64,000 nucleotides of DNA from Dictyostelium discoideum (taxonomy: Eukaryota). The stretch is taken from NCBI GenBank assembly GCA_000004695.1, contig CM000155.2:896001-960000 (forward strand), written 5' to 3'. Position 1 is the first letter of the stretch; the number at the start of each line of letters is the position of its first letter. The position numbers and the translations under genes are program-made. Below are positions 1 to 54,883 of the stretch, piece after piece. The notes below the pieces were generated by a model. It made no database searches and was not told where the DNA came from. It saw only the letters and a program-made list of their open reading frames with translations.

Positions 1-846
1 AAATTGATTGATTGATGTGTTATTGTGATTAGTTATTAAATGATTGATAATATTGATTGCTTCATGGTCATTTGCAGTACCAGGTGATAATATCCATCTT
101 TTCTTATGTTTATTTATTTGAAAAGGTGAAGAAATTGTTGTTGATATTGGATTATGATCTGATAATGAAGATGGAATTTGGTGGACTTGAGTATATATAT
201 TTTCAGGGTCTATTCTATTGTATTGAGTATATATTCTATCTAATATGTTACCATGTGTATGAGTTGGAGTGTTTTTAAATTCACCTTGATCAATTAGATG
301 GTGTTGGTATGTGTAGGATTGGATAATATCATCTAATAGTGAATTGTCGTTGTGGATACAGTTGAAATCTCCTGCGATAATAGATACATGTTGGGATTGG
401 TTTGGTATTGGGTTTGTTGAGTGGTTGTGGAGAAGTGTTTGTAGTGAAGTTGCATATGAATTCTTTTTGATGGTATTATTTGATGCTGGTGCGTAAATTC
501 CAAGAATACCAATTGGTAATTGATTTGGAAATATAACGTCTGCTAAAATAGCTCTACCATCAATTGTTGATATGTGTTTGAGTTTGAGTGTGTTTGGGTT
601 ATGGTTAATGATGATTACACCATTTCCTCGTTTGGTGACAGAGATGATGTGATCGGGAAAATCATGTTTAAGTTGTAATGGTGATGAATTGAGTTCAGTG
701 AGTATTGAGATTGTTGGACGAGGTGGAAGTTTTGATATAAGTAGTTGTAGTGTGTCAACAGCTTTTTGGTAGGAATTGTGTTGATTGTTTGGGTTTTCAG
801 TGAATCCTCTACAATTCCAAGTTATAAAGTTGATTTTTGAGCTCAT
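1..846 (-). CDS. Retrotransposon ORF2, N-terminal AP-endonuclease domain (partial; continues beyond the window start)
   Basis: ATG at 846..844 overlaps the ORF1 stop. Translation: MSSKINFITWNCRGFTENPNNQ...LTELNSSPL...GNGVIIINHN...ILGIYAPASNN...IIAGDFNCIHNDNSLLDD. The frame stays open to the window edge. Confidence 0.55.
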   Translation of the reverse strand, partial: MSSKINFITWNCRGFTENPNNQHNSYQKAVDTLQLLISKLPPRPTISILTELNSSPLQLKHDFPDHIISVTKRGNGVIIINHNPNTLKLKHISTIDGRAILADVIFPNQLPIGILGIYAPASNNTIKKNSYATSLQTLLHNHSTNPIPNQSQHVSIIAGDFNCIHNDNSLLDDIIQSYTYQHHLIDQGEFKNTPTHTHGNILDRIYTQYNRIDPENIYTQVHQIPSSLSDHNPISTTISSPFQINKHKKRWILSPGTANDHEAINIINHLITNHNNTSINQF

Positions 847-2051
847 ACCTTACTAGGTTTGGCAGCACCAGTATTGACTGGTTGTGTAGTCAGGGCATTG
901 CTGCTTCTTCTTGTATTTATTGGATTTGGAGTTGGTGCACTTGGTTTGTTTGGTTGAGATTGTAGAGGTTTTTGTGGTACAATTGTTGGATCGGTTGGAT
1001 TGCTCATTGATAATGAGTTTTTCCCGTTATTATTATTTGAAGAATCACTTTTGTGTGAAATTTCATTATTGTTTTGGGATTGATTGTTAATATCAAGTGA
1101 TTCATTTAGTATAGCTTTTGAACCACTATTTTGAAGTGAGTTATTATTGCGATTGGAATTTGCAATTTCGTTGATTGGTGGGGTTTTAATGTTGTTTTTT
1201 GGTGGTTGATTGTTTTTGTTCATGTTTGGGTTTGTGATGGCATTTTTTATAGTTGTTGCCATATCTGCATTTTTTGCATGTTGAATTTTGTGTTTAGTGA
1301 CACTACGTGTTGCAGCTTTGATATATCTTGTGATACCAGATGGTTGTTCGATCTTTTGATCAACAATGTTGTGTGTGTGATCAATTAGCTGATATGTTAT
1401 AATGTAGCTTTTAAACGCAACAGCATATGAGTATGTGACAGTAAATGATTCAATTGATGTACAACTGGTGAATTTAGTGAGGTTGTTTGTAATTGCATCG
1501 TTTGCATGTTTGGGTGAGTACGTTTTAATGAATGTTTTAATGATTGCATAATCATTTGATGATATATCGAATCTATAGTTGAGTTTGTCGATATTTAGTG
1601 CAAGTTGGTTTTGAAGGTTGATTATTGAAGTTAATTTATCAACGTTGCAATTTACGAAGGCAGTTGCACCAATTATTTTGAATGCTGATGGCGACAGTAT
1701 ATCTTCGAAGAGTTTGTGAATGTTTTTGTGAATTTGTTGAATTCTTGTGTCATCTTTTGAGGTTAATTCTTCACGGATGTGTGGTTGATTAAAGTAACAC
1801 TTAATGTTGATGGTGTTATTGTTTTTTTCTAAGAAAGAGAGTGGTCTTGTGATTGATGGAGGTGCAATGATATCTAATTGATTATCAAGTCCTTTGTTTA
1901 GTGAGAGTTGGTTTGTTGGGGTTTGTTTTTTAGGTGTGTCGATTTTTGCACTTTTGTTTTTTGTTGTTGAGGTTGTGGAGGTATTATTTGTATTGGTTGT
2001 GTTGTTATCTGTATGATTTAACTGTAATTCAGTTGAGTGATCATCAGCCAT
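843..2051 (-). CDS. Retrotransposon ORF1 (Ser/Thr/Asn-rich nucleic-acid-binding-type protein)
   Basis: Continuous 402-aa ORF starting at ATG 2051. Its stop TGA overlaps the ORF2 ATG. The composition is low-complexity (poly-N/T/S) with a basic C-terminal part, as expected for ORF1 of non-LTR elements. Confidence 0.5.
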   Translation of the reverse strand: MADDHSTELQLNHTDNNTTNTNNTSTTSTTKNKSAKIDTPKKQTPTNQLSLNKGLDNQLDIIAPPSITRPLSFLEKNNNTINIKCYFNQPHIREELTSKDDTRIQQIHKNIHKLFEDILSPSAFKIIGATAFVNCNVDKLTSIINLQNQLALNIDKLNYRFDISSNDYAIIKTFIKTYSPKHANDAITNNLTKFTSCTSIESFTVTYSYAVAFKSYIITYQLIDHTHNIVDQKIEQPSGITRYIKAATRSVTKHKIQHAKNADMATTIKNAITNPNMNKNNQPPKNNIKTPPINEIANSNRNNNSLQNSGSKAILNESLDINNQSQNNNEISHKSDSSNNNNGKNSLSMSNPTDPTIVPQKPLQSQPNKPSAPTPNPINTRRSSNALTTQPVNTGAAKPSKV

Positions 2052-2265
2052 TGTTGAAAAGTATATAGGACGATAGCCCTTGCTTTATTGAGCAAAAAAG
2101 GGTAAAATTAAGAGGAATGAATGTGGCGGTGAAGATATAACAGTGATTTATTTATTATATGTATAAATTCTCGTTTATTTCTTTGTTTTTTCGGTTTTTT
2201 TTTTTTTTTTTTTTTACCTGTGATCAGACCTTCCTTGCCTTCATTTAGAAGGTTTTAAAAATTTT

Positions 2266-2339
2266 TGCCTCAGGCCGGGATCGAACCAGCGACCTTAAGA
2301 TCTTCAGTCTCACGCTCGTACCAACTGAGCTACTAAGGC
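2266..2339 (-). tRNA. tRNA-Phe (anticodon GAA)
   Basis: Reverse complement reads GCCTTAG TA GCTC AGTTGGTAC GAGC G TGAGA CTGAAGA TCTTA AGGTC GCTGG TTCGATC CCGGC CTGAGGC A. This gives a 7-bp acceptor stem, a 5-bp anticodon stem, anticodon GAA in a 7-nt loop, a T-arm GGTTCGATCC (B box) and discriminator A. The anticodon arm is nearly identical to yeast tRNA-Phe. A T5 pol III terminator follows on the coding strand. Confidence 0.85.
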
Positions 2340-2615
2340 TTGATGAAATTTATATTTTTTATACAAGGTGACCTTTTTTATAACTTTATTTAATAATTTG
2401 AATTAGTGAATATTGTTTTATTGGTTTTAAATTTAATGTTAAAAAAAAAAGGTTATTTATTAATATATTTAATTGAATAAAGGAAAGAGTTTTTCAAAAG
2501 AAAAATGTAGGAAATTAAAAAAAAAGATTGGAAATTAAAAAAAAAAAAAAAAAAAAAATTAAAAAAAAAATTTTATTTTACATTCAAACACACAAACATA
2601 CACACATACACCGAA

Positions 2616-3220
2616 ATGTCAGAAAAATTTAAACAAAATCGAAGAAAATTTGAATATCAAGGAAGAACTATATATGAATGGGATCAATCAATAGAAGAAA
2701 TTAACATATATATTCAACCTCCACCAGGTTTAACATCTAAAATGGTTGCATGTGAAATTACACCAACTCAATTAATTTTAGGTATTAAAGGTAATCCACC
2801 ATTCATTAATGTAAATATTCATCCCACTCCACACCACTTCACCCCACCCTATCCCCCAAATGTCAACACCTAATTTATAATTATAAAAATAATGATAATT
2901 ATAATAATAAGTTATTCATTCTCGGCTAACCTAAATTAATGTTAATAAAAAAGGAACCATTTTTTTCAACAATAAAACAAAAAGATAGTTTTTGGACTTT
3001 TGAAGATGGTATAATTCATGTTACACTTCAAAAAATGAATAAAGCAGAAACATGGATGGCAGCACTTAAAGGTCATTTAAATCAAAATGAAAGTTTATTA
3101 AATGAAGAGGATAAAAAAAAGATAATGTTAGAAAGATTTCAAGAAGAACATGATGGTTTCGATTTCTCTGGTGCTGAATTCACTGGTAATAATGTACCAG
3201 ATCCAAGAAAATGTAATTGA
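2616..3220 (+). CDS. NudC/CS (p23-like) domain protein, NUDCD2-like. Two exons: 2616..2810, 2954..3220
   Basis: Exon 1 ends ...GNPPFIN, followed by a GTAAAT donor at 2811. Acceptor AAG at 2951..2953. Exon 2 begins EPFFSTIKQKDSFWTFEDGIIHVTLQKMNKAETW..., and the join is in frame (phase 0). The CS-domain pattern EW.Q...E..I...P.G....I....L......W.. is present. Confidence 0.55.
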
Positions 3221-3532: not shown

Positions 3533-4456
3533 ATGAATAATAGTAATAATATTTTCAAATTTATAACATCAAATATTCAAAAACAAGTTATTTTAAATAA
3601 AAATAATAAAATTTTAAATAAATCATTATATTTAAATAACTATTATTATAATAAAAATATTGAAAATGCTAAAATTATAAATCAAACAGCAACAACAGCA
3701 ACGATAATTGTACCATCATTAAATAATAGAAATAATTTTAACAATATAATTAGAAATTATAGTAATAGAGGTTACCCACATCGTAGATATAATAATAGTA
3801 ACGATGATGATGATGATAATAATGGTAGATTAAACTTTTTACCAAGTAAAGATAATAAGGATTCACTATTGGAGAGAATATCAGGTGTACTTGTAGGACT
3901 TGCATCGGTTGCTTTATTAGTTTATGTATTTTATGATGGAGCTTTTGAAATTGTTATAAATAATTTAATTTTCAAGAAAACAGTTGACACATTAAGATCA
4001 AATGAAAAGGTTCAAGCAGTTTTTGGCCAAGATTTCACTGCTAAAGGTTTAGGTTTTCGTTCAAATGGCTCTTTTAATTATAAACATAGTGTTGATAAAA
4101 ATGGTGATAAAATAGTTTTTGTAAGTATATATTAAATTTAATATATATTACTCACAATTAGTATACTAATATTTATTCTTTAGATTAGTTTTATGATTGA
4201 ATCAGAGAAAGGAAAGATTGGAGTTGTTGAATGTAAATCTGTTAGAACTAGTACATTAGATTTAGAAATTAAAATATTAAAAGTTAAATATGAAAATTAT
4301 AAAACAATTACAATTGTTGATGAAGCATTACCAAAGAAATTTAATAATAAATTAAAGAATTTCCTTTCAATATTTGGTATAACAATTAATAATAATAATG
4401 GGAATGATAATAGTGGTGGTAGTAGTAGTAGTAGTAGTGGTGGATCATCAAATTAA
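3533..4456 (+). CDS. Tim21-like mitochondrial inner-membrane translocase subunit. Two exons: 3533..4120, 4184..4456
   Basis: The N-terminus is R/Y/N-rich like a presequence, followed by a single TM (ISGVLVGLASVALLVYVFY) and a domain ...KTVDTLRSNEKVQAVFGQDFTAKGLGFRSNGSFNYKHSVDKNGDKIVF|ISFMIESEKGKIGVVECKSV... consistent with the Tim21 IMS domain. Donor GTAAGT at 4121, acceptor TAG at 4181..4183, phase 0. Confidence 0.5.
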
Positions 4457-4573: not shown

Positions 4574-7500
4574 TTACTTTGATTTTGGTTTTGGTTTCGG
4601 TTTGGGTTTTGAAGTTGTTTTTTGTTTCTTTTTAATCTTTTCATCATCTGAAGATATTTCTTCTAGTTCAGATTCAGATTCTTCAGATTCTGGTTCAGAC
4701 TCTTCTTCAGATTCTTCTTCAGGTTCACTTTCATCCTTCTTTTGTCTTTTTGCATTTCTTTTTGTGGTTGTGGTAGTGGTGGTTGTAGATTTCTTTTTTG
4801 TAGGTTTCTTTAATTTTACATTTGATTTTTTATCATTTTTATTTGATAGATTATCTTTTTCTTTAATATTGCCATTATTGTCATTATCATCATCATTGTC
4901 ATCATCTAAAATATTTTTACTAAATTTAGAAGGTACCTGCATACCTTGAATATCATGTTTTTCATTCAATGATAAAAGATGAAAATTTAAAGTATCAATT
5001 TGCTTATTATTTGAAATGATTTCAATATTACCATTATTTGCCAATTGTAAACAAGATGTAAACATTCTACAAACCTCATAAGTTGGTGAATTCTTTGTTA
5101 TTTCACCAAATGGAACAGTTGCTTCTTTATTTATTATTATACAATCATCATCATCTTCTTCTTCATCTTCTTCGGTTTCAATGGTTGGTTTAATGATTTC
5201 TTCTTTTAATTTTTTATTTGTTGTTGCAAAAGGTTTCATACCATTTAAAAATTTATTACCATAAACATGAATATCAAAAGTTGGATGAGAATCTTGTTCA
5301 ATTAGAATTGGTGTTAATCTATTGTTCCAATCATTTACTCTTTGTGATAATGCAGTCTCTCTAACGTATTTGGAAGCACTTTCTAAATATTTCTCAACAT
5401 AGGATCTACATAACTCCTCATAGGTTTGTGTTGGTTTACTTAATTCAATATCAATCCCATTCTCTGATATAAATCTTTCTACTACATGTTCTTCTCCATT
5501 TGAATTACCAAAATTATATTGACTACCACCATTTTGAAATGGTCCATCATGATATTCAATATTATTATTATTATTATTATTATTATTATCACCACCTTCA
5601 TAATCTGAATCGTCACCCCCACCACCACCTAAATCACCATAGTCGTCATCATCGTCATCACCCCATCCCATACCAATACCATCTCCATTATTATCTTCAT
5701 TATTATTATTTTCTTGAGTAAAGAACTGTTCTTCATTATTATTATTATTACTGTCATATTCATCATTTAAATCAAAACCATTATTTTTATTTGCTAATCT
5801 TTGTTTTCTTAAAAGTTGTTTATTTTGTTGAATGTTTTTATTATAAAGATAATTTAATTCTTTAAAGAAACAACCTCTTAATGATAATGATTCATTTGGA
5901 AATGAAATGATTGGTTCTGTTGAAAACGATAATACTTTTTCTACTTTATTAGATTCGATTGTTGGTTTCTCTTTTTTCAATTTCTTTTTTTTATCAGAAT
6001 CTAAAAGATTGAATGGAATATTAAATGTTTTACCCTTTTTGAATGGTCTACTATTATTTTTAACATCTTCATCAAATGGATTTAATAATGCCCATGCATC
6101 TTTTGTTGTTGGTTGAACTTGAGCTTTTTTTCTATTTAATCTATCTTTTTTATCATTTAATTTTGAAGATGATGATGATAAATTATTATTATTATTACCA
6201 TTTTCTTGTAGTGTTGGTGGTAGTGGTGGCGGATTAGTACCATCATTATTGTCATCATGTTTCATACCAATACCATCATTATTATCATCATCATCATCAT
6301 CATCATTATTATCATCATCGCTACTATCTTGACCTGCACCTGCATTCTCAAAACCACTACCATCATCTTTATTATTTTCATTTAAATTTGTATTTGAAGA
6401 AGAGGGTTGTAGGGGGTGTTCTCCATTAGGGGGTAGTAACGAGTCATTACTTTTTTCATTTAACTTTTTAAAGAAATCACCACCACCACCACCGCCACCA
6501 TTCATTTGATAGTTATTATTATTATTATCATCTACATCATCAGTATATTGATTCCTGTGAAAATTTAATGGCTTATTATTTGATAGAAAGTTTTCATTAT
6601 CCAAGAAATCTAAACCTCTTAATACCATTGCACCATTCTTTGATACGATTGCATCATTCATTCTAAAATCACTCCTTTTTAAATCATTCTTTTTACCATA
6701 AATTTCATTACTATTACTTTGAATACTATGAATATCTTTTTCATCCATTTCATTGGTACCACTATCACCATTTAAATCCATCATTAAATTCCTATCAGTT
6801 GAACTACTATTATTCATTAATGCAATTTTATAAGTTGATTCATTTGATACTTGATCATCTTCATTCTCTTTTCTTTTATTTGATTTCATTTTTTTTCTTA
6901 TACCACCATCACCACCACCATCCTCTTCTTCATTCTCACCATCATTTAAATCAATATTATCATCTTCAATTAAAATATCATCTAATGCTAAAAATTCTAC
7001 ATCATCTTCATTTTCAATATCTCTATCAACACCTTCTGAATTAATTGATGTTGCATCTTTTCTTTTTCTAATTTTTTTTTTTTTTTTTTATTTTAAAAAT
7101 AAAATAAAATAAAATAAAATAAATAAAATAAATTGTTATTAAATTAATTCATTTTATATTTGTATATTTATTATTATTATTGTAAAATTTTTAATTACTT
7201 TTTTTGTGCTAATAAATCCAATGTTTGATAAAGTAAACTATATAGGTATTCTACTTTTTTACTATAAATAACTGCTGATCCTTGAATTAATAATGCAGCT
7301 AAATTTTTAAAAAAATAAAATTTATATATATCAGTATGATTTTATTACTTTTTTATTTTTTATTATTTTTTTATTTTTTATTTTTTTTTTTTTTCTTACC
7401 TTCAGCGAAATTTAAAGTTTTTACTTGATTAGTACCTTCAAATGTGAATGAAATTTTATCCAAATCTGATAAATAATCTTCCAATTCTTTTGAAATATCA

Positions 7501-7608: not shown

Positions 7609-7841
7609 ATGTTATTAAACATCAACTAGTAGTTGATATGTTTTTGATTTAATTTTATTATTATATTTTAAATTTTTTTAATTTTTATTTTTAAAATAGT
7701 AAAACTAATATTTTTATAAAAAATACAGAAAAACAAATTTGTACTTAGTTTTAGAAAAAAAAAAATTTAAAACTAAAAAATTAAAAAAATTATGAAAATT
7801 GAAATTTTTTGGTGGGGAATTTTTAAAAAATTGGCGCCAAA

Positions 7842-7878
<37 letters not shown>

Positions 7879-10093: not shown

Positions 10094-12415
<2,322 letters not shown>

Positions 12416-12467
12416 TCTATTATTTGTTACTAAAATTTCAATATCATAATAATAAAAACCATATTGA

Positions 12468-13205
12468 TTAAATAATATATTTATTATCTAAAATATATGA
12501 TACCATATTATCTTTATCTTTATTAAATTCCAAACACCATTTTATTGAATTTTTTTTTATATTATTTGTAATTATTTTATTTTTATCATTATTATTATTA
12601 TTATCAATAACTTTATTATTTATATAATTAATTAATAAATTTAATGTTAAAGTTGAAGAGTATTTTATTGAATATTCAATATGATAAGATGTAATTTTAA
12701 AATTTATTATTGATTCTGAAAATAATATTTCTAATAATTGGTTATTATCGGATCTAACAAGAAACATAACATGATCATTTTCAAATTGAAATTGGTATTG
12801 ATTTATTAATAATTTAAAAACTATTAAATGAATGTTTTTAATTTTTGATTGTCCACCAACGATTTTAACAGACTTTATAAAATCTATAATTTCACTTTTT
12901 GTAACTTGTATGAATTGTTTTGTTTCTAATTTATATTTCAATAAATCTAGGCAATTGTTTTTTACCATCCAACCAAATGAATAAATATTTTCAAATTTAA
13001 TTCTATTTTCTGTATAATAATACGTATAGTTTTGAAACTCAATATCCATATTTAGCATTAAATCAAAAATTAATCCATTTAAATATTTGTTTCTAAAAAC
13101 TTTCCAAAATAGTATCTCCCAAATATCCATTGGTATAATTGATTTATTCATTGGTTGAACTATAGATTTATTACTTAGAATATTAATTCCATTTTGTTTT
13201 TCCAT
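12468..13205 (-). CDS. Hypothetical protein, N-terminal part. It is probably the 5' portion of the same gene as 10094..12415, shifted by one frame
   Basis: ATG at 13205, giving a 245-aa ORF MEKQNGINILSNKSIVQPMNKSIIPMDIWEILFWKVF... that ends at TAA 12468..12470. It overlaps by about 20 nt the open upstream extension of the next frame. Confidence 0.4.
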   Translation of the reverse strand: MEKQNGINILSNKSIVQPMNKSIIPMDIWEILFWKVFRNKYLNGLIFDLMLNMDIEFQNYTYYYTENRIKFENIYSFGWMVKNNCLDLLKYKLETKQFIQVTKSEIIDFIKSVKIVGGQSKIKNIHLIVFKLLINQYQFQFENDHVMFLVRSDNNQLLEILFSESIINFKITSYHIEYSIKYSSTLTLNLLINYINNKVIDNNNNNDKNKIITNNIKKNSIKWCLEFNKDKDNMVSYILDNKYII

Positions 13206-13613
13206 TCACTGGGAAATTAATTAAAAAGTTTATTTTTTAAAGGCTGAACTCTTAAATGAATTAAAATTATAAAAATAGTCGGCTTTTTTTTGTGTGAAAA
13301 ATTGTTTTTTTTTACATAAAAAAAAAAAAAATTAAAAAAAAAAAAAAAAACCAACACCATGCAAATTACTTTTTTCATGTAAAAATTTAAAAAATTTTTA
13401 TAATCTAAAAAAAATTTAAAAAAAATCTAAAAAAAAAAAAAATCTTAATTTACTTTTTAATTTATTTTTATTTTATTTTTTATTTAAATAATCTTTAAAT
13501 TGTAAATAATATTATTTATTCTATTAATTTCTTTTAAAAAAAAAAAAATTTCATTTTATTTAAAAATCATTTACATTACATTAAATAATAAAATAAAAAA
13601 AAAAAAATTAAAA

Positions 13614-13859
13614 ATGACAATAATTGGTAATATTTTTTTTATTTATTATTTTGTTTTATTTAAAAAAAAACTAATTTTAAATTTTAAATTAATTATAATA
13701 ATTATAGCACCAACTACTGGCTCTGTTTCAACTGTTAGTTCTGTATTTAAATATGGTTCAAATAGTATTTCAAGTGGTTCTGATTCTTGTTCTGGTTCTG
13801 GTTCTTATGCATATGGTGTTTCATATGGTGTTCCGAAAATAGGTGTCAGTTTAGGATAA
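13614..13859 (+). CDS. Small Ser/Gly-rich protein, possibly of the hssA/2C/7E family. Probably two exons: 13614..13626, 13708..13859
   Basis: ATG ACA ATA ATT G, then a GTAATA donor at 13627. The intron is 81 nt, AT-rich, and ends in TAG at 13705..13707. Spliced product: MTIIAPTTGSVSTVSSVFKYGSNSISSGSDSCSGSGSYAYGVSYGVPKIGVSLG. The intron is a multiple of 3 with no stop, so the unspliced 81-aa ORF is also open. Confidence 0.3.
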   Translation: MTIIGNIFFIYYFVLFKKKLILNFKLIIIIIAPTTGSVSTVSSVFKYGSNSISSGSDSCSGSGSYAYGVSYGVPKIGVSLG

Positions 13860-15014
13860 AATGGACTAATCTTATAATTTTTAAACCACTATATTGGGAA
13901 AAGTGTTAAAATTAGCAACCCAAAGAAATCTTGAATTGATGGGTCATCTTGTAGGGGGTAGTGTGTATGAACCAATTAATAAGTGAATTTGACATGTCTA
14001 TTTGTATATTTTTTTATAAATTCATTGTTTCAAATTCCTGGAAAGTCGTATAATTCACTCATGTCCGAGTGATATTGAGTTATAATAATTTGATTTAATA
14101 AATTGAAATCAATTTGAATGTTTATATTTAATATTGAATGAAAAATAGAAAAATATTGAGATTTATTAAATATGGACATGGATTATTCAAACCTATCAAA
14201 ATACATTAGTATTGAAAAAACTGGAAATAGGAGGTGTGGCCATAAATAATTTTTTTTTTTTTTTTTTTGTGTGATAGTATATGTTCAGTTCACAAAAACA
14301 ATTGAAAATATCCTGGCACTAACAATAGCTTTAAAAAAAAAAAAAAAAAATTGGATAAAATATTAAAAAGATGGATATCCATTTTGGATAATTAAAAAAA
14401 ATATGGATGGATAAAGATAATCAAAAAAGACACTTTTTATCCAAAAATGGATATAGGTAAAACACTAGTTTATTAGGAGGAATTTTAGGAGGGAATAAAG
14501 GTTTACTTGGTGGTTTATTAGGTGGTTTTCCAAATGCAAATTTTGGTATCAATGTTGAAAAACTAAAAAAAAAAAAAAAAAAAAAAAAAACCAACCTTTA
14601 CTAAATAAAATTATAACATTACTACTATTTCATAAGCATTCATTTTTTAAAAAATAAAAAAAAATATTTAAAATAAATTATAATAATTTTAAAAAACGTT
14701 GATGATTTTAAAAAATAATTAAAAAAATAAAAAAAAGATAAAAAAATGATTATTTCATGATATATCAATGAAATTAAAGTAATAATTAAGAAAAGACAAA
14801 AAGCTGTGTTTAAAAAAAAAAAAAAAAAAAACAGAAAAATCAATTCTTGATATTTTATCAAAATAAAAAAATATTTGACACAAAAAAAAAAAAAAAAATC
14901 ATAATGAAAATAAAAAAAAACAAAAAAAAAGTTATAATACTAATAATAATAATAATAATAATAATAGTAATAATAATATAATAATAATAGTAGTAATAAT
15001 ATAATAATAATAAA

Positions 15015-28659: not shown

Positions 28660-29220
28660 TAAAATAAAATGAATGTAATCGTTCTATTTTATTTTTAGAA
28701 TTTAATTATATTCATTTTTTGTATTTGGTTTTTTTATTTTTAGGGAATATATTTTAAATAACTTTTATAAAATCAATATTCTCACAATTTTTCTTTTTTT
28801 TTTTTTTAATTTTTTTTTTTTTTTTTGAGTATTAATTCAAAAAAAAAATATATATATATATTTTATTAAATAATGGAATATATATATTTGATATACCAAT
28901 TGTTACCTATATTTGGTTATCAAGTTGTGTATAAAAATGAATAGCCTATCCATCTAAAAAGAGCTATAATTGGTGATCAAAACTTATTATTTTATTCCAC
29001 CCAATAAAACAAAATGATTTTATGGTTGTTAATTTTTTTTTTTTTTTTTTAAAAAACAATTGATTTTCATATTTTAATGATTGTCAATTTTATTGATTGT
29101 GTTTAGATTTTAAAATATTTTTTTTTTTTTTTTTGTTTTCTGTCTAAACACTTCAATTAAATATAAATTTATATCTTTGCTGTTTTCAATAAAAAAAGGA
29201 AGATTACCAAAAAAAAAAAA

Positions 29221-29438
29221 ATTATTATAAAATTGACTTTTTCTTTTTAAAAAAATTTATAAGAATAAAATGTGATTACAATAATACTATTATTTTTAAG
29301 AAATAAATTAAAAAAAAAAAAAAATAAAAAAAAAAAAAAAAAAATTATTATAAAATTGACTTTTTCTTTTTAAACAAATTTATTTATAAGAATAAAATGT
29401 GATTACAATAATATTATTATTTTTAAGAAATAAATTAT
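29221..29438. repeat. Tandem direct duplication, two copies of a unit of about 95 bp with a period of about 124 bp, in intergenic DNA
   Basis: 29221..29310 reads attattataaaattgactttttctttttaaaaaaatttataagaataaaatgtgattacaataatactattatttttaagaaataaatta. 29345..29438 repeats it with small differences (taaacaaatttattta, ataatatt). Confidence 0.8.
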
Positions 29439-30085
29439 AAAAAAAAAACTATAAAAAAAAAATAAAAAAAAAACAACCAATCGTTGTCTTGTATCTGTGA
29501 TTTCTTAAGATATTTGTTTTTATTGTTGACGTTATTGTTGTATGATGTTATATAGCGTCATGAACCATGCCCGGGTGAGGTTGAAAAAGATTTTGTTGTT
29601 GGTATGAAAATAAAAAAAAAAAATAAAAAAAATAATTGGGAATTGTTTTTTTTTTTTTTTTTTTTATAAATTAATTAATTCCACAAAAAAGTTTTTTCTC
29701 ATCGGTAAAATTTTCTTATCTATCGATTATCGTAATTTGATGTGACTCACGATTGAACAACAACCTTCGGTTTTTTTTTTTTTTTTTTTTTGTAAATACT
29801 TATTAAAAAAACGATTGTCAATTTTTTAGCAGATCAAGATTTTTCATTTGCAGATATAAGAATGATTCAAAAAAAAAAAAAAAAATCTTAATTTATTTAT
29901 TTTTAATTTTTTTTTTTTTTTTGTAAAATTAATTTTTTTTTTTTTTTTTTCTATAAATTTTCTTTACAAATGTTTTTTTTTTTTTTTTTCTTTAATAAAT
30001 TATTATTATTATTTTATTTATATAAGTATATATATAAAAAATAATTAATAAATTTATAAAAATATAAAAAAAAAAAAAAAAAAAA

Positions 30086-32153: not shown

Positions 32154-34902
32154 CAATTTAGGATCAGTCGGCTATAATTCATTTTCAAATATTACATTTT
32201 TATATGATAATATTAATATGACAAGGGATCAAGATTTTTATAATATTGCATATTTAGAAAATGATGAAATTCCACGTGATTTACCATTTTCATTAATTTC
32301 TTTAGATCCAGTAACTTATTCTTATTTAACTTCAGTTAGATTAATTAATAATATTATGTACCCATTCACTTTTGATCCAACCATTAATAAATTCACAAGT
32401 AAATTTGTTATTCCAGCAAATACTGCATTCGATAAGATTTCATTTGCAATTATTGGTGGTTTATCAACAGAATTTTATTATTCAGGTTTTACAATTAATA
32501 ATTCACCAGCTTTCGATAATGAAGGTCCATTATTTAGTGAATTCTACAAAGTAAATGAAAATACTACTTATTCCTCTTTAGGTTATCCAAAAACTTCTGG
32601 TTGGAGATTTAGAATCACTGATAAATACAATGGTTTCAGAAATGGTTTTATTAAAGCTATGGGTTCAGTTGATAGTACAATTATTAAATTAAACTTCACT
32701 GTCCACGATAGACTTAATGGTGATAAACACGATGGTTTATATGAACTTTTACTCGCTTTAGTACCAGAACAATGTATCACACAACAATATACTATCACTC
32801 ACGTTGAACTTTATGATGACAATAACATTAGTTCAATTTTCAAACTTTATTCACCAGATTATTACTTAAAGAATCCATTCATTAATATTTATGCTCAAGG
32901 TTTAGAAGTTACTACAATCTCTACATTCTGTAGTGAACCAATTATTGACGTTTTACCAACTCTTTCCCAATTCAGAGTTTACAATCAATCTGTTGATGTT
33001 GGTTCTGGTAATAGAAGAGTTTCATTTAGTTTTGAAGCATCATCAGATAGTGGTATGAAAAGATCACAAGCACCAATTATTTATCTCACAACAAATTTAT
33101 TTGAAATCGTTGAATGTGAAACAAAATTTATTATGATTACACCAATATCCAATCTTTACTCTTGTTCAGTTGATCTTCCATTCTCATTTGGTTATCCAGG
33201 TAAATTATTTTTGTCAGTTTATGGTTTAATCAATAATGGTGGTAAATATGGTGGTGCTAGTACAAAGGATTTACGTGATCTCGGTTTCCAATATTCTATT
33301 GATACTCAATTCACAAATTATACTCCAGTTATTACTCAAAATGATAATATTTTATCCGTTCATTCAGATTTAGTATTCTTTGGTTATGGTTTCAATAAAG
33401 TTGTTGATGTAATTGTTAGATATAAAAATCAAGAACCAGTTCATATTGCACCAACTCAAATCTTTGGTTCAACTGCAATTAAACTTCAAATTACTCCAAC
33501 TGAATATCAATTTACTATTCAAGTTGTAAATAGTGAAGGTATTTATTCAAATGAATATAAAATTAATCCAATAATTTGGAGATATCAATTTAATCCAACT
33601 GAAACACCAACTGAAACTCCAACTGAAACTCCAACTCAAACACCAACTCAAACACCAACTGAAACTCCAACCCAAACTCCAACTGAAACTCCAACTGAAA
33701 CTCCAACTGAAACTCCAACTGAAACTCCAACTGAAACTCCAACTGAAACTCCAACTGAAACTCCAACTGAAACTCCAACTCAAACTCCAACTGAAACTCC
33801 AACTGAAACTCCAACTCAAACTCCAACTGAAACTCCAACCCAAACCCCAACACAAACACCAACACCAACACCAAACCCAGGTAATTGTAATGTTAGTGTT
33901 ACCCTAAAGGTTACTTCTCAATGGGTTGAAAATAATCAAAACTTTATACAAGTTGAGGCAACTATTTTCAATTATGGTCAATCAGAAATCACTGGTTTTT
34001 CATTCCAATTATTTAATATTATCAGTATTTGGAATGTTGATCAAACATCATTCAATAGCTACAGTCTTCCAATTTGGTTACCAGCCATTCAAGTTGGTTC
34101 ATCATTCAGTTTTGGTTATATTCAAAAAACTGATACTGTTGTCCCACTCTCCTCCCAATCAGTTGTATGTCAAGAAATTCCAACCCCATCCCCAACTCCA
34201 TCACCATCCCCATGTATGATTAATGTTTCTCAAAGTATCGTTAATTCATGGAGAGAAAATACTCAAGACTTTATTCAAGTTGAAGTAAACCTTAAAAACA
34301 TTGGTCAAAATACCGTTTACCAATTCTCATTCGAAATATTTGATCTTGTTAACATTTGGGGCGTTGAATTATTATCAAATAATACTTATCAACTCCCAAG
34401 TTGGGTATATAGTATCCCAGTTGGTTCATCTCACAATTTTGGTTATATCCAAAAATCAAACCATCTTTTACCAATTTATTCACAATTACCAACTTGTCAA
34501 GTAACTCCAACTCCAACACCAACTCAAACTCCAACTCAAACTCCAACTGAAACCCCAACTCCAACCGAAACTCCAACCGAAACTCCAACTCAAACTCCAA
34601 CTCAAACACCAACTCAATCACCAATTCCAAGACCAATAACTTGTTCAAAACTTGATGATGTTCTTAATTTCAATAGCACAGAAACTATTTACTGTAAAGG
34701 TAGAGGTCCAACCTACTGTATTGATGGCTATGGTTCAGAATGTGAAACCAACGATGTTGATGGAAGAATTAAATGTACAACAAAGAGCAATTTCATGAGC
34801 TGTAAGGGTGATCATTTAGTTTGTAAATCAAACTATCTTACATGTAAAGTCAATATTTCTGAAGGTACACCATTCCATGTTCACGATTCTTCTTTACAAT
34901 AA
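30086..34902 (+). CDS. Large secreted glycoprotein with two tandem CBM49-like carbohydrate (cellulose)-binding modules, Pro-Thr (PTETPTQT)n linkers and a C-terminal Cys-rich tail. Six exons: 30086..30482, 30565..30840, 30950..31282, 31362..31643, 31746..32054, 32162..34902
   Basis: Signal peptide MNKLYFSIYFIILSILVTLSNG. Five introns (GTAAGT or GTATGT donors, TAG acceptors) are all phase 1, and each internal exon is a multiple of 3 nt. The two ~95-aa modules are C.V...V.SW.EN.Q.FIQVE....N.GQ......F......IW.V........Y.LP.W......G.S..FGYI.K and match the CBM49 pattern (..SW...GQ.YYQ.EV.I.N.......L..........WG.......Y.FPSW...L..G.S..F.YI). (ACT-CCA/ACA-CCA) repeats encode mucin-like PT linkers at 33590..33870 and 34500..34620. 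Confidence 0.55.
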
Positions 34903-54188: not shown

Positions 54189-54883
54189 AAAATAAAGCCC
54201 GCACTAATATATAAGAATTTTTTTTTATTTTTTTTTTTTTTTTAATGTATATCCACAAAAAGTTGTTTTTTTATTTTATTTTTTATAAATTATTTTATTA
54301 ATTATTTACAATTATATTACAATGTCAATTTAATTCGTTTTTTTTTTTTTTTTTCTGTTTATTTTTTATTTTTTATTTTTTAATATATCTTGTTATGCTA
54401 TTTTAGAGGTGTGTGGGTGAGTGGAAAAAAAAAAAAAAAAAAAAATAAAAAAATTTATAAAAAAAAATGAAAAAAAAAAAAATAAAAAAGAAAAAAAAAA
54501 GAAAAAAATAAAAAAAAAAAAAAAAAAAAGAAAAAAAAATTAAAAAAAATTTTAAAAAAAAAAAAAAAAAAAAAAAAATCAAACAAAAATGATGTTTTAA
54601 TTATTTGTTATTTTATTTATTTACTTTTATTATTATTATAATTATAATTAGAAACAATTGTAATTGTATAATTTATTTTAATTTTTTTTTTTTTTTTTTT
54701 CATATTTTTTAATTATTTTATTTTATTTTTTTTTTAAAATTTTTTTTTTCAATCGAACGAAGAAATTTTTTTGATATATTTATTTTTTTTTAAATTTTTT
54801 TTTTCTTTTTCAAAACAAATGATTAAAAATAAAAATAAAAAATAAAAAAATATAAAAAATAAAAAAAAATAAAAAATAAATAA

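Follow-up and report, generated by a model that had tools for sequence, protein, structure and literature searches.

A stretch of 64,000 nt from Dictyostelium discoideum (GenBank contig CM000155.2, positions 896,001 to 960,000, forward strand; hereafter the window, in whose numbering positions are given) very probably begins inside a young, apparently intact copy of a TRE3 retrotransposon, most likely TRE3-B, which is cut by the window edge and lies in the canonical place with its 5′ end facing a tRNA-Phe(GAA) gene. That TRE3 elements reside beside tRNA genes in D. discoideum is textbook knowledge. Assignment of the copy to TRE3 is supported by sequence identity, architecture, position and orientation. 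The tRNA-Phe gene is the target of the element and is transcribed by RNA polymerase III (Pol III); it is the sole tRNA gene and the sole Rfam match across the 64-kb window (ARAGORN and Rfam). An earlier reading of the bare sequence (the original prediction) had proposed this minus-strand gene, and both ARAGORN and Rfam model RF00005 agreed with it (Table 1). A run of adenines and an 18-nt stump of a second retroelement were found between the tRNA gene and the element.

Position and orientation of the element relative to the tRNA gene

The core of the element starts with CCG at position 2194, on the same strand as the tRNA gene and 71 nt from its 3′ end (2266), or about 64 nt when the oligo(A) head that precedes the core is counted. 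The locus was compared with L005 and L006, which contain copies of the element's own family, and with L007 and L008, which contain copies of a sister family showing about 40-41% ORF2 identity. The distance from the tRNA 3′ end to the start of the CCG core was 77 nt in L006, 55 nt in L005, 69 nt in L007 and 76 nt in L008, and all five 5′-complete copies examined, representing two TRE3 families, were located downstream of a tRNA gene and co-oriented with it. TRE3 elements integrate 40-150 bp downstream from tRNA genes, with matching orientation, as measured from an internal or external B box (PMC5911963), and the insertions observed span 14-228 bp in the case of TRE3-A and 34-188 bp in that of TRE3-B (PMC5006619 Table 1). 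A TRE is borne by 61% of D. discoideum tRNA genes (PMC5006619). The original prediction of a TRE3-type element, which had been based on the downstream, tRNA-oriented position, is thus in line with the measured distance, the published 40-150 bp and the four other copies at 55-77 nt.

An element of the TRE5 type, or another non-long terminal repeat (non-LTR) element lying near the tRNA gene by accident, is an extremely unlikely identity for this copy. TRE5 and TRE3 have a two-ORF plan (ORF, open reading frame) with APE-type endonuclease, reverse transcriptase (RT) and zinc-finger regions in common, and the visible part is the 5′ 2.2 kb alone; however, TRE5 insertions are oriented against the tRNA gene and lie some 50 bp upstream of it (about 44-54 bp; PMC5911963), whereas the window copy is downstream and co-oriented, as are the other 5′-complete copies of its family, with distances across copies confined to 55-77 nt. 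TRE5 identity was rejected on position and orientation. TRE5-A (DRE) resembles the element in superfamily, domain plan and the targeting of Pol III transcription complexes on tRNA genes, but its insertions lie about 48 bp upstream and are oppositely oriented, and it has modular A/B/C untranslated regions (UTRs) and an ORF1 product that binds TFIIIB, none of which applies to the window copy. No TRE5 was found upstream of tRNA-Phe, where the 276 bp at 2340..2615, including the slot at about 50 bp, contain no element.

Coding sequences of the element

Nucleotide identity of 99.5% with the copies in L006, L003 and L005 starts at the start of the 5′ UTR or in the A-run. ORF1 ('gag') is intact and uninterrupted, and 399 of its 402 residues (99%) are identical to the D. 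discoideum 'gag' protein AAD43056.1/Q9Y1H6, with the private substitutions H221Q, N289K and T377P. No Pfam domain was found in ORF1, and its AlphaFold2 single-sequence model was too poor for use (mean predicted local distance difference test score 37, predicted template modeling score 0.28). The TGA of ORF1 overlaps the ATG of ORF2 ('pol') as ATGA (843..846), and ORF2 is read in the −1 frame relative to ORF1 (2051 − 846 = 1205; 1205 mod 3 = 2). Amino acids 8-231 of ORF2 (nt 154..825) matched the APE-type Pfam domain Exo_endo_phos (PF03372; E = 1.4e-12, 48.3 bits, cutoff 24.5), and the strings ITWNCRGF and AGDFNC are present in the product. The ORF scan and the Pfam match agreed with the original prediction on the extent of ORF1, the ATGA overlap and the endonuclease-type start of ORF2, and also on the truncation of the copy by the window edge, up to which ORF2 stays open through 282 codons.

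The ORF2 fragment was identical at 281 of 282 residues (99.6%) to the 'pol' protein AAD43057.1/Q9Y1H5 (1275 aa), the single substitution being R201I. AAD43057.1 contains the APE domain at 8-231, an RT domain (RVT_1) at 502-732 and a zinc knuckle of the form CPIC-N12-H-N4-C (CX2CX12HX4C, CCHC) at residue 1056. The original prediction had named the lack of an RT domain, or a best match to a non-TRE sequence, as evidence that would speak against it; neither emerged, and the full-length relatives, 99.6% identical over the shared part, carry RT. Several dozen gene models of D. discoideum (AX4 and a newer assembly) share 90% clusters with the ORFs of the element, which is therefore multicopy. With ORF1 and ORF2 99% identical to a multicopy D. 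discoideum element, the features observed at the locus are not due to chance. A reading of ORF2 as a host EEP-domain gene was rejected.

Subfamily assignment

TRE3-B is said to have been described by Szafranski et al. in 1999 and by Glöckner et al. in 2001. It is treated in Spaller et al. 2016 (PMC5006619), whose consensus sequences run to 5279 bp (TRE3-B), 5229 bp (TRE3-A) and 4734 bp (TRE3-C). In L006, a full copy of the element's family spans 5287 bp, counted from CCG up to the last base ahead of poly(A), and full copies of the family at this locus terminate in A14. For the sister family, three full copies gave 5219, 5221 and 5224 bp. If the element's family is TRE3-B and the sister family TRE3-A, the length errors are 8 bp and 5-10 bp, respectively, against more than 55 bp if the assignment is swapped. 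The protein cluster of the sister family is the larger one (79 members), which fits its being TRE3-A, the most abundant TRE3 with 67 copies (PMC5006619). In addition, the AX4 model DDB_G0291688 comprises ORF1 and ORF2 aa 13-771 of the element's family, and DDB_G0291686, which has the consecutive identifier, has the dictyBase product name 'TRE3-B ORF2' (PMC12405889 Table 2); consecutive identifiers in the D. discoideum genome denote adjacent models of one element, as in DDB_G0268942 and DDB_G0268944. The element is thus probably TRE3-B. The original prediction had left the choice among TRE3-A, -B, -C and -D undecided from the window, and it is length, abundance and gene identifier that now favor TRE3-B.

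That the element is TRE3-A (Tdd-3) instead is unlikely. TRE3-A is the commonest TRE3, the deposited gag and pol names have no visible subfamily label, and the approximately 5.29 kb made up by ORFs and UTRs exceeds the TRE3-A consensus by just 58 bp; on the other side stand the closer agreement of each family with its own consensus length, the larger cluster of the sister family, as expected of TRE3-A, and the name of the neighboring AX4 gene model. TRE3-A, as represented by the sister family, is like the element in architecture, in targeting (69-76 nt downstream and co-oriented in L007 and L008) and in the oligo(A)+CCG 5′ head, but its ORF2 is about 40% identical, its copies are 5219-5224 bp long and its ORF1 showed no detectable similarity to that of the element's family (E = 0.6). 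The literature likewise describes no similarity between the ORF1 proteins of different TRE families. TRE3-A requires a −1 frameshift (PMC5911963). With TRE3-B the element shares a pair of ORFs, the second read in the −1 frame, the APE-RT-zinc knuckle order (RT and knuckle as seen in the relative), a short 5′ UTR, the co-oriented downstream position within 34-188 bp and the length of its full-length relatives. Nothing substantive sets it apart from TRE3-B; four private amino acid substitutions occur in the visible part, and the 3′ 3 kb lie outside the window.

Several points weigh against a complete TRE3-B copy targeted in the usual manner. The TRE3-B label rests on length, relative abundance and the identifier of a neighboring gene model, not on alignment to labelled references, and the L006 copy is still 8 bp off the published length. 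The portion of the window copy that would hold the RT domain, the zinc knuckle, the 3′ UTR, the poly(A) tail and the target-site duplication (TSD) lies outside the window, and the completeness and activity of the copy are unproven. No external B box was found downstream of tRNA-Phe in the visible part, including the interval between the gene and the element. The targeting of TRE3 is not known to have been dissected experimentally, and the mechanism proposed below is drawn from publications on the family and on non-LTR biology more generally.

The A-run and the 18-nt stump

The original prediction had placed an A24 run (2192..2216) between the tRNA terminator and the 5′ UTR. An A-run exists there, but it is A21 and directly abuts, on its tRNA side, the 18-nt sequence GAAGGTCTGATCACAGGT, whose retroelement origin the prediction had missed; the other coordinates of the prediction were exact. 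The same 18-nt terminus followed by poly(A) recurs in L005 (about 7110-7147) and L007 (about 352-419). Its relative in L005 is a 5′-truncated copy of about 0.8 kb that ends at about 7128 and is flanked by the TSD CCTAATCTAAA, and its relative in L007 is a copy of about 50 nt (352-400) flanked by the TSD TGTTATATTTGTATT. The L005 relative encodes an ORF2 C-terminus with 49-54% identity to a third ORF2 family of D. discoideum (P0027/P0170). The three occurrences, in the window, L005 and L007, all show TRE3-type position and orientation. The stump is what is left of a severely 5′-truncated TRE3-type element, possibly TRE3-C or TRE3-D. The 32-nt flank between the tRNA gene and the stump did not match any of the fetched element copies.

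Every 5′-complete copy of both TRE3 families has an oligo(A) head of 6-10 A before CCG. The oligo(A)+CCG termini are at 766 and 6062 in L007, 6839 in L008, 7857 in L006, 7855 in L005 and 2194 in the window. TSDs in L007 show that the head adenines belong to the insert and not to the target. As the heads elsewhere are 7, 8, 8 and 9 nt long against 21 nt in the window, the A21 run is best read as a fusion in which about 11-15 A come from the poly(A) tail of the stump and the rest from the element's oligo(A) head. A rival view, that the run together with the 18 nt before it is AT-rich intergenic sequence of the usual kind or a homopolymer of the target site, is very improbable. Dictyostelium intergenic DNA is rich in long A and T runs, and a TSD of the stump cannot be shown in the window; against this, the 18-mer contains G and C, is exactly the last 18 nt before poly(A) of two independent TSD-flanked copies and directly abuts an A-run that exceeds the 7-9 A heads of the other copies by about 13 A. 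A plain intergenic homopolymer was rejected on the basis of the 18-mer match and the run length.

With an 18-nt stump and its poly(A) tail between the tRNA flank and the TRE3-B head, the tRNA-Phe gene has therefore been hit at least twice. With the stump removed, the TRE3-B core would start about 40 nt from the tRNA end, within the published range. The order of the two insertions is undecidable without the 3′ junction and TSD of the TRE3-B copy, both of which are outside the window.

A single genomic copy of the third family, an APE-RT family, was examined, in L009 (7183..9458; P0170, about 35% identical to TRE3-B ORF2). This copy is 5′-truncated, and its poly(A) begins two bases past the ORF2 stop, without a 3′ UTR. 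ARAGORN found no tRNA gene within 7 kb of it or elsewhere in the 16.4-kb L009 locus; an integrase-bearing long terminal repeat element is located near the P0170 copy, at 11840..14160.

Repeated insertion at one tRNA gene

That a single tRNA gene may collect TRE insertions in tandem or in succession is known (PMC5006619, note to Table S2). The two TRE3-type insertions at tRNA-Phe are of this kind, and the same was seen in L005, L006 and L007; the window differs in that its second insertion amounts to 18 nt plus a tail and is fused to the oligo(A) head of its neighbor. In L006, the first head of a tandem TRE3-B pair (7800..7856) is preceded by the B-box-like 22-nt sequence GGTTCAAATCCCAGAAAAAAGT, which is not repeated past the poly(A) of the first copy and is a candidate for either an external B box or a 5′ transduction. 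Two short poly(A)-tailed stumps, separated by GTATTACCAAAA repeats, lie between the tandem copies of L006 (13144..13234), which suggests repeated hits at one spot.

It is conceivable, if rather doubtful, that the oligo(A)+CCG head acts as a secondary landing pad, its complementary T-run offering an ideal priming site to the poly(A) of the TRE3 RNA that the same tRNA gene next recruits. Such head priming, if true, would explain why the tail of the 18-nt stump is fused exactly to the resident head, as well as the poly(A) stumps piled up between the tandem copies of L006.

Proposed integration mechanism

In the literature consulted, the targeting interaction has been studied for TRE5-A alone. On the mechanism, the window itself shows an intact ORF1, an endonuclease domain that is likewise intact, ORF2 overlapping ORF1 in the −1 frame and a location downstream of the tRNA gene on the same strand. 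As an APE-type non-LTR element of the L1 clade, the element would be transcribed into an RNA that gives rise to the ORF1 protein and to an ORF2 protein with APE endonuclease, RT and zinc knuckle. The resulting complex would be guided to the Pol III transcription complex assembled on the B box, and the endonuclease would introduce a nick into A/T-rich DNA some tens of bp downstream. At the nick, the poly(A) tail is presumed to anneal, with cDNA made by target-primed reverse transcription, which would leave a poly(A) tail and a TSD, for this copy beyond the window. Frequent abortion of the process would produce 5′-truncated copies such as the 18-nt stump. Beyond position 1, the full element is expected to continue with ORF2 to about 1275 aa, a 3′ UTR of about 110 nt ending in GTTTATTTATATC, poly(A) and a TSD.

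Features of the locus and of the rest of the window

The coordinates of the tRNA gene, its flank, the two insertions and the nearest host genes are given in Table 1. The start of the CS-domain gene is separated from the 5′ end of the tRNA gene by 276 bp of AT-rich spacer.

Table 1. Features at the tRNA-Phe locus (window coordinates).
Feature	Coordinates	Strand	Description or evidence
ORF2 ('pol')	1..846	-	First 282 codons, stop-free to window edge
ORF1 ('gag')	843..2051	-	402 aa, intact
5′ UTR of the element	2052..2194	-	143 nt, begins CCGAAAAAACAAAGAAATAAACGAG
A21 run	2195..2215	-	
18-nt stump	2216..2233	-	GAAGGTCTGATCACAGGT; identical to the extreme 3′ end of another retroelement with poly(A) (TRE3-type)
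Native tRNA 3′ flank	2234..2265	-	32 nt, AAAATTTTTAAAACCTTCTAAATGAAGGCAAG; read from sequence
Pol III terminator (T5) inside 3′ flank	2257..2261	-	
tRNA-Phe(GAA) gene	2266..2339	-	ARAGORN; Rfam RF00005, 62.5 bits
Internal B box of tRNA-Phe	2277..2287	-	GGTTCGATCCC; B-box match
Host gene with CS domain	2616..3220	+	Two exons, 2616..2873 and 2939..3220; divergent from tRNA
TIM21-like ORF	3533..4135	+	Beyond CS-domain gene

The rest of the window appears to be ordinary gene-dense Dictyostelium DNA with ORFs rich in trinucleotide repeats. GC content in the window ranges from 14 to 33%, which together with the database matches indicates D. discoideum or a very close relative. Three other repeats were noted. 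A near-pure A tract (Tandem Repeats Finder, 82% matches) at 54425..54589 has a length, 165 nt, that is great even by the standard of intergenic sequence in Dictyostelium. The 12-nt unit TCCAACTGAAAC is repeated 22.5 times with 92% identity at 33594..33863, inside an ORF on the plus strand (32218..34902), and would give a coding repeat of four residues. A 127-bp AT-rich unit occurs in 2.1 tandem copies with 93% identity in intergenic DNA at 29209..29472.

Implications

Elements of this kind are already known, and the locus offers an unremarkable case; what is added here is the probable subfamily, TRE3-B, the corrected A-run and the second, 18-nt insertion. For annotation, positions 1..2233 should be masked as a repeat (TRE3, probably TRE3-B, plus the 18-nt stump), ORF1 and ORF2 of the window should not be taken for host genes, and tRNA-Phe should be recorded as a doubly hit target. 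The locus adds one more apparently intact 5′ half of TRE3 to those in the D. discoideum genome. If the head-priming idea were true, tandem TRE3 arrays would grow by head-primed insertion and not by independent measuring from the B box.

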